The notes under the pieces were generated by a model. It was not told the DNA's origin, ran no database searches, and saw only the letters and a program-made list of their open reading frames with translations. 64,000 bases of DNA. Origin: Escherichia phage anhysbys. This document shows positions 3,052 to 46,835 of the stretch, piece after piece (positions within the stretch are counted from its first letter, which is position 1; every line of letters begins with the position of its first letter). The stretch is taken from the sequence record NC_052656.1. One strand, given 5' to 3'. Both the position numbers and the translations under genes were made by a program.

Positions 3052-3394
3052 GAGGATTCTTTTAGATTTCTATAATAATTGGTTAGAACACCTCCGTCTC
3101 TTTCCAAGAGAAAGTGGTTACGCTGATGTTGGCTTATGCCGAGGTCTGCGTATGTATATAAGCGATGAATTTCGGGCAGAGCATTCTTTAGCATATTCTG
3201 TTTATGGTATGCAATTAGCCAGTTTTGAAAACGCTGGCTTAGATACAACTTTCCCATTTAACACAGCAAAATCTTTTGAGCAAGAGTGTAAGGAAAAACG
3301 TTGTATGTTTAATGAAAAACGTGTACAGTGGGTTAAGGATCGAGTTAAACAACTGGAACAAGAGTTGGATTTCTTTTATGACGAGGCAGAATAA
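3029..3394 (+). CDS. hypothetical protein, paralog family 1
   Basis: ATG 3029 after gaaggag; shares FY..WLE / GLC / KRVQWVKDRV motifs with ORFs at 191 and 4334. Confidence 0.5.
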   Translation: MTIDLKCKRILLDFYNNWLEHLRLFPRESGYADVGLCRGLRMYISDEFRAEHSLAYSVYGMQLASFENAGLDTTFPFNTAKSFEQECKEKRCMFNEKRVQWVKDRVKQLEQELDFFYDEAE

Positions 3395-5989: not shown

Positions 5990-6205
5990 ATGAGTTCCAA
6001 TTTTCTATACAAAGCAAAAGATTCACGAGATGGAGAGAAACATTGGTGGTTGATCACAGGAGATGGTGTTATCATCCTACCGTGGGACGGAGAGACAAAA
6101 GTTCAAATACTGGAGAAAGTAAAAGGTGTTAGTTTTAATGTTAGTCATGACATAACAACTTTCAAAGCTTTTGCAATGAATCCCAGTCTTGTTGCTGAAT
6201 GGTAA
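5990..6205 (+). CDS. hypothetical protein
   Basis: 71-aa ORF with aggagg RBS. Confidence 0.5.
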   Translation: MSSNFLYKAKDSRDGEKHWWLITGDGVIILPWDGETKVQILEKVKGVSFNVSHDITTFKAFAMNPSLVAEW

Positions 6206-6637: not shown

Positions 6638-7070
6638 AGAAAAAGAAGTAATCACGGTAATCCGTCAGATGGAAGGTGCCGAAAACAATGCTTTTGTTAC
6701 TAAGATTCTTCTTAATATCTTTGAAGATGTTATTTTAAACAACCCTGGTCATAAAGATTATCAGTATGATGTTATGATGGGTGCTTTACTTGAGATTAAC
6801 AAAAACACTTTTGCTGAATATGAGCAACACATGCTTTTACCAGAGGAAGATCAGGATTATTTGTTATCTGGTGCTTTAAGTGCACAAGAAAATTTCTACC
6901 ACGTTCTTAATATGGCTTATGCAGATGAACTTGCTGTTTCCCTTGAAGAGCGGATTCAAATGGTTCGTGACGTAATGAATGAACAAATCCAAGAAGTTGA
7001 AGACTTGGTAGCAGAACCTTTAGCAGAAATTCGTGCAGCTATTGAAAAACAAAAAGGAACTCAATCATGA
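6621..7070 (+). CDS. hypothetical protein
   Basis: 149-aa ORF. Confidence 0.5.
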   Translation: MSQNAKEKEVITVIRQMEGAENNAFVTKILLNIFEDVILNNPGHKDYQYDVMMGALLEINKNTFAEYEQHMLLPEEDQDYLLSGALSAQENFYHVLNMAYADELAVSLEERIQMVRDVMNEQIQEVEDLVAEPLAEIRAAIEKQKGTQS

Positions 7071-44773: not shown

Positions 44774-44848
44774 GGCCCTGTAGCTCAATGGGAGAGCTGT
44801 CGGCTCATAACCGATAGGTAGCTGGATCGAAACCAGCCAGGGCCACCA
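44774..44848 (+). tRNA. tRNA-Met (anticodon CAT)
   Basis: Manual cloverleaf: acceptor GGCCCTG/CAGGGCC, loop CTCATAA, T-arm GCTGG-ATCGAAA-CCAGC, encoded CCA. Confidence 0.8.
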
Positions 44849-45120: not shown

Positions 45121-45150
45121 TTGACAACTAACATTATTTTATGTTAGATT
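45121..45150 (+). promoter_or_regulatory. sigma70-like promoter (CTATTGACAA family)
   Basis: TTGACA at 45121-45126, 18-nt spacer, TAGATT. Confidence 0.4.
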
Positions 45151-45158
45151 ATAAGTAT

Positions 45159-45249
45159 GGAAGGGCAAATCGACGTGGCGACGAAAACGGTCTTGAAAAC
45201 CGCCGAGCTTGAAAGAGCCTTGGGAGTTCGACTCTCCCTCCTTCCGCCA
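45159..45249 (+). tRNA. tRNA-Ser (anticodon TGA), class II
   Basis: Acceptor GGAAGGG/TCCTTCC, loop CTTGAAA, long variable arm, T-arm GGGAG-TTCGACT-CTCCC, encoded CCA. Confidence 0.75.
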
Positions 45250-45340: not shown

Positions 45341-45470
45341 AGTTCTTTTTAATATAGCTTACTTTAATAGAGTAAACTTTCGGCAGATGGCCTCCACCAT
45401 CTTACCGATAACTCATAGTTAGTGGTGTGAACACTGGCTATTTTAAAAAGAATTTAAATATTAGTATTTA

Positions 45471-45558
45471 GGTGAGTTAATTCCGTAGGGGTAGCGGGGC
45501 AGACTGTAAATCTGTTATCATTGCGATTCGGGTGGTTCGACTCCATCACTCACCACCA
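45471..45558 (+). tRNA. tRNA-Tyr (anticodon GTA), class II
   Basis: Acceptor GGTGAGT/ACTCACC, loop CTGTAAA, long variable arm, T-arm GGTGG-TTCGACT-CCATC, encoded CCA. Confidence 0.75.
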
Positions 45559-45564
45559 AATTAA

Positions 45565-45650
45565 GATGAGTTGGCTGAATGGTTTAAGCGGCGGACTGTT
45601 AATCCGTGTTCGAAAGAACGATATAGGTTCAAATCCTATACTCATCGCCA
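45565..45650 (+). tRNA. class II tRNA with anticodon GTT (Asn-decoding by anticodon, isotype uncertain)
   Basis: Acceptor GATGAGT/ACTCATC, stem GCGGA/TCCGT with loop CTGTTAA, variable-arm hairpin GTTC-GAAA-GAAC, T-arm ATAGG-TTCAAAT-CCTAT, encoded CCA. Confidence 0.6.
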
Positions 45651-45657
45651 GAATTAT

Positions 45658-45734
45658 GGACTTGTAGAGTTAAGGTAAACCCCCAGTCGCCAAGAGGCTT
45701 CTGGAATTGCAGGTATCGAATCCTGCCGAGTCCC
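45658..45734 (+). tRNA. tRNA-like element with non-canonical anticodon arm (possible pseudo-tRNA)
   Basis: 7-bp acceptor GGACTTG/CGAGTCC and T-stem GCAGG/CCTGC with 8-nt loop TATCGAAT, but no standard 5-bp/7-nt anticodon stem-loop; no CCA. Confidence 0.3.
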
Positions 45735-45740
45735 AGCTTT

Positions 45741-45815
45741 GCTCCTATAGTATAATGGCTATTACAACGGTTTTGTAATCCGTGGATCTCTGTTCGATTC
45801 AGAGTGGGAGCACCA
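45741..45815 (+). tRNA. tRNA-Thr (anticodon TGT)
   Basis: Acceptor GCTCCTA/TGGGAGC, loop TTTGTAA, T-arm CTCTG-TTCGATT-CAGAG, encoded CCA. Confidence 0.75.
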
Positions 45816-46088
45816 ACACAACATTAAGGGCACTGTGATTGATCGTCGTATCCTGTGCACAAGGTCTGTTCGAAAGACAGTGTTCTTAGTATTGTGTTGA
45901 TCACACAAAGAGTCACCTGAAACTTGACCGGAGTAGGGTTGGATGGGGCAAAAGAAGAAGCGGCTCTCCCATCGACAGCAACGAAGAATAATATTTGACT
46001 TTGGTTTTGTATTATTTTAAGTTAGCTTACCGAACGTAGGGCTAGTCACCCAATGGGATACTCGTCACTGTCCCACTCAATAAAACTA

Positions 46089-46118
46089 TTGACAACCAAT
46101 AGTAAAATGTAGTATAGT
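46089..46118 (+). promoter_or_regulatory. sigma70-like promoter (CTATTGACAA family)
   Basis: TTGACA at 46089-46094, 18-nt spacer, TATAGT. Confidence 0.45.
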
Positions 46119-46129
46119 AAAGATGTAGG

Positions 46130-46203
46130 GCGTTCTTGGTGTAGCGGTAGCATTCCGTCCTTCCAAGTCGGCGGCACGAGTTCGATCCTCGTAGAACGCT
46201 CCA
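46130..46203 (+). tRNA. tRNA-Gly (anticodon TCC)
   Basis: Acceptor GCGTTCT/AGAACGC, loop CTTCCAA, T-arm ACGAG-TTCGATC-CTCGT, encoded CCA. Confidence 0.75.
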
Positions 46204-46301
46204 AATTATTTAATAAAGGGTTGCCAGAAAACTTTCTCTTTTACTCATGGTTTTCTCCTTCTCTCACACCTCTTCTGGTTGCCCTTCATTAAATGATTTA
46301 T

Positions 46302-46376
46302 TGGTTTGTAGTGTAGTCCGGTAGCACACGACACTTTGACTGTCGTAGGTTTGGTTCAAATCCAGACAGACCAGCC
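46302..46376 (+). tRNA. tRNA-Gln (anticodon TTG)
   Basis: U1-A72 acceptor TGGTTTG/CAGACCA with discriminator G, stem CGACA/TGTCG with loop CTTTGAC, encoded CCA. Confidence 0.8.
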
Positions 46377-46382
46377 ATATAA

Positions 46383-46459
46383 CGGAATTTAGCTCAGTTT
46401 GGTAGAGCATACGCTTTGGGAGCGTAGGGTCGCAGGTTCGAATCCTGCAATTCCGACCA
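46383..46459 (+). tRNA. tRNA-Pro (anticodon TGG)
   Basis: C1-G72 acceptor CGGAATT/AATTCCG, stem TACGC/GCGTA with loop TTTGGGA, T-loop TTCGAAT, encoded CCA. Confidence 0.8.
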
Positions 46460-46465
46460 ATCAAA

Positions 46466-46539
46466 TGTTTCGTAGTTCAATGGTAGAACCCACGACTGAT
46501 AATCGTGAGACACAAGTTCGATTCTTGTCGAAACAACCA
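46466..46539 (+). tRNA. tRNA-Ile (anticodon GAT)
   Basis: Acceptor TGTTTCG/CGAAACA, stem CACGA/TCGTG with loop CTGATAA, T-arm ACAAG-TTCGATT-CTTGT, encoded CCA. Confidence 0.75.
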
Positions 46540-46541
46540 GT

Positions 46542-46611
46542 TTCCCGTTAGACTTACAGGATAAGAGTTCCACAACTTATTGTGATGCTGGTTCGAATCC
46601 AGCACGGGATA
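46542..46611 (+). tRNA. tRNA-like element with non-canonical anticodon arm (possible pseudo-tRNA)
   Basis: Acceptor TTCCCGT/ACGGGAT (1-72 mismatch) and canonical T-arm GCTGG-TTCGAAT-CCAGC, but middle folds only as CACAA-CTTA-TTGTG; no CCA. Confidence 0.3.
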
Positions 46612-46617
46612 CATAAT

Positions 46618-46696
46618 AGCGGGATAGAGGAGTCTGGTCGTCCTCGCCAGTTTCATATGCTGGAGATCATCGGTTCAAATCCGATTCCCGCCTCCA
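46618..46696 (+). tRNA. tRNA-Met (anticodon CAT), second copy, initiator/Ile2 not excluded
   Basis: Acceptor AGCGGGA/TCCCGCC with A1.C72 mismatch, stem CCAGT/GCTGG with loop TTCATAT, T-arm ATCGG-TTCAAAT-CCGAT, encoded CCA. Confidence 0.65.
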
Positions 46697-46811: not shown

Positions 46812-46835
46812 AGCCTCCTTATTGGAGGCTTTTTG
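46812..46835 (+). terminator. intrinsic terminator closing the tRNA cluster
   Basis: AGCCTCC-ttatt-GGAGGCT followed by TTTTT. Confidence 0.7.

Follow-up and report, generated by a model that had tools for sequence, protein, structure and literature searches.

Two tRNA-sized elements without an anticodon arm

The DNA analyzed here is a 64,000-nucleotide (nt) stretch of Escherichia phage anhysbys (NC_052656.1), referred to as the window. It carries a tRNA cluster that is up to 99.7% identical to those of the Phapecoctavirus (Stephanstirmvirinae) myophages of E. coli, in which ARAGORN, run on the window, finds 10 tRNAs between positions 44774 and 46696, all on the plus strand. Two further tRNA-sized slots of the cluster hold other sequences: element 1 (45658-45734) lies between tRNA-Asn (45565-45650) and tRNA-Thr (45741-45815), and element 2 (46542-46611) lies between tRNA-Ile (46466-46539) and tRNA-Met (46618-46696), with real tRNAs 6 to 7 nt away on both sides of each. 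In near-identical published phages, both loci are either blank or covered by a small "hypothetical protein." Phage tRNA clusters are regarded as an answer to tRNA-cleaving immunity, and attention has so far been on their decoding tRNAs. On comparative sequence grounds, it is clear that at least two non-decoding tRNA-shaped RNAs are also under structural selection.

Both elements form stable predicted folds. Element 1 reaches -27.6 kcal/mol (z = -3.6) and element 2 reaches -20.8 kcal/mol (z = -3.05), with none of 200 shuffled sequences as good in either case. Each contains an acceptor helix stacked on a T or T-like arm (12 to 13 bp), a short D-like hairpin, and a conserved multi-helix junction (Table 1). 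The initial annotation of this DNA had described 7-bp acceptor helices and T arms of the GGTTCGAAT type in both. The acceptor description holds for element 1, which has seven pairs including one G-U, and fails for element 2, which has 6 bp and a U1-U72 mismatch; the T-arm description holds for element 2 and fails for element 1, where the loop has 8 nt. It was right that neither element forms a 5-bp/7-nt anticodon stem-loop, since both folds give 4-nt loops at this place, and that neither encodes CCA, the 3' tails being C-AGC in element 1 and A-CAU in element 2.

The search for a canonical tRNA with standard predictors, set beforehand as the refuting test, gave a confident call at neither locus. 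ARAGORN on the window called neither element. Element 1 did not match the Rfam tRNA model (RF00005) at E ≤ 10, even in a 95-nt scan, and element 2 scored 25.2 bits against a gathering threshold of 29, with its anticodon arm skipped in the alignment. The 12 true tRNAs of the cluster, including two that ARAGORN missed, score 37 to 72 bits on the Rfam models, passing or nearly passing, and all 12 encode CCA. When Rfam 15 was searched at permissive thresholds with the window region, each element, T5 RNA3, and a Chaseviridae non-coding region, the sub-threshold tRNA match of element 2 was the only one, and neither of the two families described below is present in Rfam 15.

Table 1. Parts of the two elements and operon signals of the tRNA cluster (positions in the window)
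Feature	Positions	Strand	Sequence	Basis and remarks
Promoter-like site	45121..45150	+	TTGACA-18-TAGATT, TG extension	10/12, consensus match only; upstream of element 1 sub-operon
Element 1, acceptor 5' strand	45658..45664	+	GGACUUG	Fold; pairs with 45727-45733, 7 bp including one G-U
Element 1, junction/D-like motif	45665..45681	+	UAGAGUUAAGGUAAACC	17 nt, largely unpaired; possible 3-bp GUU-loop-AAC mini-hairpin
Element 1, hairpin replacing anticodon arm	45683..45704	+	CCAG-UC-GCC-AAGA-GGC-UU-CUGG	Fold; 4-nt loop
Element 1, linker	45705..45708	+	AAUU	AUU before the T-like arm invariant in alignment
Element 1, T-like arm	45709..45726	+	GCAGG-UAUCGAAU-CCUGC	Fold; 8-nt loop
Element 1, acceptor 3' strand and discriminator	45727..45734	+	CGAGUCC + C	Followed by AGC, no CCA
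Promoter-like site	46089..46118	+	TTGACA-18-TATAGT	11/12, consensus match only; upstream of element 2 sub-operon
Element 2, acceptor 5' strand	46542..46548	+	UUCCCGU	Fold; 6 bp, U1 unpaired (U1-U72)
Element 2, UAGA, D-like hairpin, 5-nt linker	46549..46570	+	UAGA, CUUA-CAGGA-UAAG, AGUUC	Hairpin predicted by RNAalifold
Element 2, hairpin replacing anticodon arm	46571..46584	+	CACAA-CUUA-UUGUG	Fold; 4-nt loop
Element 2, canonical T arm	46587..46603	+	GCUGG-UUCGAAU-CCAGC	Aligned to Rfam tRNA T arm
Element 2, acceptor 3' strand and discriminator	46604..46611	+	ACGGGAU + A	Followed by CAU, no CCA
Terminator-like hairpin and U-run	46812..46830	+		End of tRNA operon

Two phage-borne RNA families with conserved structures

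A sensitive BLAST search with tRNA-Asn, element 1, and tRNA-Thr led to T5-like phages, and the alignment extended beyond tRNA-Asn into element 1. In the T5-group record AJ604531.1, the 73 nt directly 3' of tRNA-Asn (6863-6935) are annotated as "rna3: RNA3, tRNA-like RNA with unknown functions," and the same sequence is present without a change in the IMG/VR contig L028. Judged by position, sequence, and predicted fold, element 1 is the unannotated Phapecoctavirus counterpart of T5-group RNA3, a match that the initial annotation had missed. Besides their place directly 3' of tRNA-Asn, the two RNAs have in common a UAGAGUUAAG(N)UAAACC junction, a hairpin that is not an anticodon arm, an AUU linker, an 8-nt T-loop YAUCGAAU, and an acceptor stem of 7 positions; a loop of the form YAUCRAAU is common to element 1 and the T5-type and Justusliebigvirus copies. 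They differ in that T5 RNA3 ends in A-CCA and has a U1-U72 mismatch, whereas the window copy has G1-C72 and no CCA, and in that the hairpin carries a 6-nt loop in T5 RNA3 but an internal loop and an AAGA tetraloop in the window copy. Their overall identity is 64%.

Further lineages of this family (family 1) were recovered by pattern scans of IMG/VR followed by a structural filter; exact-pattern scans of this kind would miss members that have diverged in the motif. The lineages comprise Justusliebigvirus, Chaseviridae (Erwinia Y2, phiEcoM-GJ1, Mangalitsa, and Pantoea SSEM1 types), a 261-kb jumbo phage contig (L053), and an 80-kb contig (L068), in addition to 86 Phapecoctavirus-type and 354 T5-like records. 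A covariance model built on 13 sequences gives family-1 members 48 to 91 bits, with one copy per phage, and everything else at most 24.5 bits. The window copy scores 75.6 bits (E ~1e-15; the E-values of our models are rough, since the calibration was short), against about 90 bits for T5. tRNA-Asn lies directly upstream in the window, the T5 group, and Justusliebigvirus. This arrangement is not universal, as Chaseviridae and one IMG/VR contig (L012, below) lack tRNA-Asn.

The structure of family 1 is maintained by paired substitutions. Across 24 distinct sequences, 94.8% of the cells that should pair do so, against 29 to 41% in slid controls; both sides have changed in 14 of the 16 pairs (6/7 in the acceptor stem and 5/5 in the T-like stem), and none of 500 shuffles reached the observed covariation. 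RNAalifold independently predicts the same three helices. Some positions do not vary, namely G7-C66, AUU(G), a single basal A-U pair of the hairpin, and the two stretches UAGAGUUAA and AAACC, which are the same in 24/24 sequences. Within the 17-nt junction motif, only 2 to 3 central loop bases vary, which fits a 3-bp GUU/AAC mini-hairpin acting as a D arm. This motif is invariant across Demerecviridae, Stephanstirmvirinae, Chaseviridae, and the jumbo phage. By comparison, the hairpin standing in for the anticodon arm is 16 nt long with a tetraloop (AAGA, AUUU, or UUCG, the last in Erwinia Y2) at its shortest and about 40 nt long, in GJ1-type phages, at its longest; the 6-nt loop of T5 is among its forms, and its closing pairs covary. 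A hairpin of such variable length and sequence cannot be an anticodon arm. At the 3' end, (A/G)CCA is encoded in 14 of the 24 sequences, including the T5, Erwinia Y2, and GJ1-type homologues.

A second family (family 2) includes element 2 and is recovered by BLAST from 76 phage records: about 69 Phapecoctavirus, a few Vequintavirinae (W70, A7_1, LTH01), and the Drexlerviridae phage phiEB49. The family thus rests on three lineages only, and a metagenome scan for further ones gave Phapecoctavirus copies only. The tRNA upstream is tRNA-Ile in the window, tRNA-Tyr in Vequintavirinae, and tRNA-Arg in phiEB49. The phiEB49 homologue (NC_023743.1, 43830-43906) is called tRNA-Val(AAC) by both ARAGORN and GenBank because its loop can be drawn as 7 nt (UUAACAA); it is a mis-annotated family-2 member. 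Like element 2 and the unannotated W70, A7_1, and LTH01 copies, it has the D-like hairpin CUUAYAGGAUAAG, a canonical T arm, and a short AU linker. It differs from the window copy, with its U1-U72 mismatch, ACAU tail, and 4-nt loop, in having a full 7-bp acceptor stem and an ACCA end.

Across the 8 distinct sequences of family 2, 94.6% of cells are paired against 38 to 44% in slid controls, and 4 pairs in the acceptor stem, T stem, and hairpin show both-side changes, with the same helices given by RNAalifold. Among them, pairs 2:71 and 3:70 have changed on both sides in the Vequintavirinae and phiEB49 homologues, and in Vequintavirinae the first pair of the T stem is A-U in place of G-C. The D-like hairpin hardly varies. 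In the hairpin replacing the anticodon arm, the stem is kept and the loop is found as CUUA, CUA, UUUA, AUAUC, GUCUC, or UAACA, through both substitutions and indels; this drift, together with the absence of U33 and of a purine at position 37, indicates that no selection acts on an anticodon. The 3' tails are ACCA in W70, LTH01, and phiEB49 (3 of the 8 distinct sequences), ACCU in most Phapecoctavirus, and ACAU in the window. On the family-2 covariance model, the window copy scores 100.4 bits and members 79 to 101, against at most 42 for true tRNAs. Element 2 is clearly a tRNA derivative, nearer to tRNA than family 1 is. A distant relationship between the two families is possible: the family-1 model gives element 2 copies 21 to 24.5 bits, just above true tRNAs (≤20.7), and in both families UAGR and then a mini-hairpin follow the 5' strand of the acceptor.

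Both elements are maintained about as strictly as their neighbors or more so. Element 2 of the window and that of W70 are 83.6% identical, and the true tRNAs common to both phages are 60 to 75% identical; for element 1, the identity to the Justusliebigvirus copy is 66%, against 72 to 74% for tRNA-Asn and tRNA-Thr. Pairing is retained at 64 to 66% identity, too low for the alignments to be an artefact of copies that separated very recently. Within Phapecoctavirus, the variable positions are almost confined to loops, linkers, and the unpaired 1:72 position. In a 153-kb Phapecoctavirus-like contig (L012; IMGVR_UViG_3300014004_000001, 6030-6170, minus strand), a 43-codon open reading frame (ORF) with a GGAGG ribosome-binding site replaces tRNA-Asn, and element 1 is kept 7 nt past its stop codon with one tetraloop base different. 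In the Chaseviridae regions, ARAGORN finds no tRNA genes adjoining the family-1 element. Outside phages, BLAST found neither element in 5,426 complete E. coli genomes, and no true family-1 member was present in 185,579 species-representative genomes, where the 31 exact-motif matches all scored at chance level (≤24 bits). According to these comparisons, both elements are phage-specific, independently maintained units.

A candidate tRNA mimic and its alternatives

In both families, the fourth arm keeps its stem, while its loop and length drift freely, so that it looks dispensable and the RNA cannot decode. The junction and the acceptor/T top half seem to be under selection, whereas this arm does not, and the simplest reading is that of a mimic recognized by its tRNA shape and acceptor end rather than by an anticodon. 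We therefore propose, from sequence comparison and at what we judge to be an even chance of being right, that both elements are functional, selectively maintained, anticodon-less tRNA-derived RNAs that are excised and act in trans as tRNA mimics. They would be transcribed as part of the tRNA operon and excised by the host tRNA-maturation machinery, with RNase P cutting the 5' end and the 3' end being trimmed, whether or not CCA is then added, to give a stable RNA of about 73 to 80 nt. CCA is added post-transcriptionally to the CCA-less tRNAs of T4, and it may likewise be added to the copies that lack it. The product would then engage a tRNA-binding factor through its top half and specialized core, most plausibly where phage and host are in conflict over tRNAs; there it could be a decoy or competitor for an enzyme that acts on tRNAs.

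E. coli has defense systems that cut tRNAs, and phage tRNAs replace or shield the targets or act as decoys (PMC11464382; PMC13096335). Among specific roles, a part as decoy or competitor in this conflict is the one we favor, though taken by itself we hold it to be unlikely. It is likewise conceivable but unlikely that the two families are dedicated anticodon-less decoys with which virulent enterobacterial phages titrate or misdirect a host tRNA-directed immune effector or toxin. Candidate effectors may include nucleases that cut outside the anticodon (Septu, retron PtuAB) and acceptor-end enzymes; as a variant, CCA-bearing members may be aminoacylated and feed a non-ribosomal reaction. If true, this would be a non-coding anti-defense mechanism distinct from the supply of cleavage-resistant replacement tRNAs. 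For work on tRNA mimicry between phage and host, the elements are a defined candidate that can be deleted.

Several points weigh against action in trans as a mimic. Excision and stability are predictions based on the architecture together with the T5 annotation. CCA, which 12/12 cluster tRNAs encode, is missing from the window copies, which weakens any role needing a charged or CCA-bearing end, and the acceptor-stem sequence is not conserved, so that it does not point to the identity of any one aminoacyl-tRNA synthetase. The analysis turned up no binding partner, target, or co-occurring protein, and the neighboring genes differ among phage groups: no shared protein partner recurs consistently among the neighbors, RecA-like ORFs lying near two distant members only, and nothing tRNA-related is found within 45 kb in an annotated Phapecoctavirus. 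In the contigs L053 and L068, moreover, the element follows an ORF and ends in a U-run, which looks more like an mRNA 3'-end element.

The last point leads to the strongest alternative, which we consider possible yet clearly less probable than the mimic. The elements may be cis-acting, tRNA-shaped punctuation that only recruits RNase P (and a 3' exonuclease) to cut the polycistronic transcript, free neighboring tRNAs or mRNAs, or cap an mRNA 3' end, the excised piece being functionless. This is the part of the initial annotation's proposal, "tRNA-shaped processing signals," that may still stand. It accords with the constant location of the elements inside transcription units between other genes, with the copies that follow a stop codon (L012) or an ORF and precede a U-run (L053 and L068), and with the absence of CCA in the window copies. 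In the T5 region, other stable RNAs likewise have an acceptor-like closing stem and a GCCA end, which makes tRNA-like ends look like a processing device of general use in these phages. It leaves unexplained, however, why a 17-nt motif should stay invariant while the helices covary, as RNase P needs the acceptor/T stack only; the neighboring window tRNAs are themselves RNase P substrates 6 to 7 nt away, which would make an extra site redundant; and the (A/G)CCA encoded in most lineages suggests that a finished 3' end matters. If the elements are processing sites only, the result is a useful but ordinary annotation correction.

It is improbable, in our estimate, that the elements are small regulatory RNAs on a tRNA scaffold, whose active part, the 17-nt stretch in family 1 or the D-like loop in family 2, pairs with host or phage RNA or binds a regulator, with the acceptor/T frame serving processing and stability. 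The junction motif is unpaired in most predicted minimum-free-energy folds as well as invariant, and T5 RNA1 and RNA2 carry large inserts in a tRNA frame. The family-2 hairpin CUUA-CAGGA-UAAG also resembles a CsrA-type GGA hairpin site. Yet a search of the 64-kb window for the motif or its complement with ≤3 mismatches returned only the motif itself and thus no complementary site, and the variable bases lie in the middle of the motif, as in the loop of a GUU/AAC mini-hairpin and not as in a seed.

That the elements are real decoding tRNAs with unusual anticodon loops, such as the phiEB49 tRNA-Val(AAC) call or frameshift and suppressor tRNAs, is very improbable despite that call and the 25.2 bits of element 2. 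Close relatives have 3-, 4-, and 5-nt loops, the would-be anticodon reads UAU against UCU in W70 and LTH01, U33 and purine 37 are missing, the family-1 hairpins carry either a tetraloop (UUCG, AAGA, or AUUU) or an insert about 40 nt long, and ARAGORN calls neither window copy. The other half of the initial annotation, "decaying pseudo-tRNAs," i.e., neutral remnants of duplicated tRNA genes, would suit a tRNA-like frame without anticodon loop, CCA, or passing model score, but we rejected it as scarcely credible because compensatory changes preserve pairing in all helices, hundreds of genomes in several phage families keep the elements, divergence is not faster than in the flanking tRNAs, polymorphisms are almost confined to loops and linkers, and element 1 survives both the replacement of tRNA-Asn and tRNA-less surroundings.

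Four narrower candidates were considered but not adopted: a tmRNA-like function (no G3-U70), Ser/Leu charging via a long extra arm (no conservation of the acceptor stem or the discriminator base), binding of CsrA to the D-loop of element 2 (only one site, and none in family 1), and a homing-endonuclease target site (no linked endonuclease gene).

Related RNAs and the surrounding cluster

RNAs of this kind, tRNA-like and placed in the tRNA cluster of a phage, are already annotated for the T5 group (AJ604531). RNA1, RNA2, and RNA I, III, and IV of that record are, like both elements, non-tRNA small RNAs in a phage tRNA operon with acceptor-like closing stems, some with CCA; T5-group RNA I (AJ604531 = L216, record 3090-3196), for instance, is closed by GGCUC...GAGCC followed by G-CCA. 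Acceptor-like framing seems to be a general route by which these phages make small RNAs. No sequence relationship of either element to these other T5 RNAs was detected, the covariance models of families 1 and 2 (R1, R2) scoring them no higher than the tRNA background. The species 1 and 2 RNAs of T4 (rnaC, rnaD) are similar small RNAs of a phage tRNA operon.

The elements also resemble the tRNA-like domain of tmRNA, in which an acceptor/T-arm top half is combined with a D region of reduced size and a long helix stands where an anticodon arm is expected. Unlike tmRNA, they have neither an mRNA module nor, L053 excepted, the G3-U70 alanine identity, position 3:70 being A3-U70 in element 1 and C3-G70 in element 2; ARAGORN called no tmRNA in the window, and Rfam gave no tmRNA match. 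MALAT1 mascRNA, the t-elements of plant mitochondria, and the RNase P-processed C4 RNA of phages P1/P7 are tRNA-shaped guides for RNase P and a possible analogue for a purely cis-acting element. They come from different organisms and have different sequences, whereas the elements have a conserved junction motif and, in many cases, an encoded CCA; the Rfam mascRNA and C4 models match neither element. A non-translational tRNA-like RNA with a physiological role has been described as "tRNA-Other" in Bacillus cereus (PMC3399842), and it is an analogy only, being chromosomal, with its anticodon arm retained and its sequence unrelated.

What is undescribed, as far as we checked, is the cross-family distribution, the junction motif, and the Chaseviridae copies without adjacent tRNA genes; the family of element 2 was previously known only through one tRNA-Val mis-annotation. 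Among open-access papers, we found no functional study of T5 tRNA-like or stable RNAs or of anticodon-less phage tRNA mimics. Family 1 spans T5-like phages, phAPEC8-like phages, Justusliebigvirus, and the tRNA-less Chaseviridae, >500 genomes in total. Almost all copies are unannotated or mis-annotated as tRNA-Val or hypothetical protein. The orphan T5 RNA3 is thereby tied to a broad family with an invariant junction, and the alignments are ready for covariance-model annotation.

Some features near individual copies were recorded as well. The family-1 element of Chaseviridae lies in a non-coding region of up to about 900 nt without tRNA genes (Mangalitsa, L189 2470-3350; Erwinia Y2, L188 2730-3080). 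A conserved GCGCGACUUUAAAUAAC block, upstream of the element in Mangalitsa and downstream in Y2, is possibly a phage RNA-polymerase promoter, and other segments of this region, with ...CCA at their ends, may be processed RNAs as well. The homologue in L053 and L068 stands directly after an ORF and ends in a U-run; the RecA-like ORF is immediately upstream of the element in L053 (1892-3412, minus strand) and two genes upstream in L068 (910-1896, plus strand). Justusliebigvirus (Escherichia phage outra) lacks element 2, and its slot between tRNA-Phe and tRNA-Leu is filled by a different 78-nt segment (L077 2557-2634) with a 7-bp acceptor-like closing stem (ACACCAU/GUGGUGU). The D-like hairpin of element 2 (46553-46565) contains UACAGGAU, which presumably matches the core of the CsrA binding hairpin (SELEX consensus RUACARGGAUGU); the match may simply reflect the G18-G19 of a D-loop.

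Within the window cluster, the two promoter-like sites and the terminator-like hairpin suggest a division into two putative sub-operons, one for each element. tRNA-Tyr(GUA) (45471-45555) was missed by ARAGORN and added by Rfam at 39 bits. A Ser(UGA)-like tRNA (45159-45245), also missed by ARAGORN, has an aberrant D region and an encoded GCCA end, and Rfam matched it only as tRNA-Sec, at 37.4 bits against a threshold of 47; in PD06 (L062 3673-3762), ARAGORN calls a tRNA-Ser(UGA) at the equivalent place of the cluster. The tRNA-Met(CAU) that follows element 2, the second of this kind, has a first-pair mismatch, and both it and tRNA-Tyr(GUA) are labeled "tRNA-Pseudo" in MT496970. Yet the Met(CAU) gene recurs at 95 to 100% identity in other genera, Justusliebigvirus among them, and this conservation suggests that it is a functional special tRNA, possibly of the Ile2 or initiator type.

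Between tRNA-Ser(GCU) and tRNA-Tyr lies another unannotated structured RNA of about 115 nt (45341-45460) without an Rfam match. It is kept in Phapecoctavirus, PD06, Justusliebigvirus, and Vequintavirinae (W70 and, in an alignment limited to the 3' half, LTH01). Compensatory changes are seen both in a hairpin inside it (AGAUGG/CCAUCU to AAGUGG/CCACUU) and in its long closing stem. Several phage records named after Acinetobacter, Campylobacter, Pseudomonas, or Listeria contain tRNA-cluster segments that match coliphages or T5-type phages (OP562383.1, MG065645.1, OR848495.1, and others). OP562383.1 and MG065645.1 are 98 to 99% identical to Phapecoctavirus, and the Listeria record is about 80% identical, matching as T5-type phages do; these records probably represent mislabeled hosts or contaminants.

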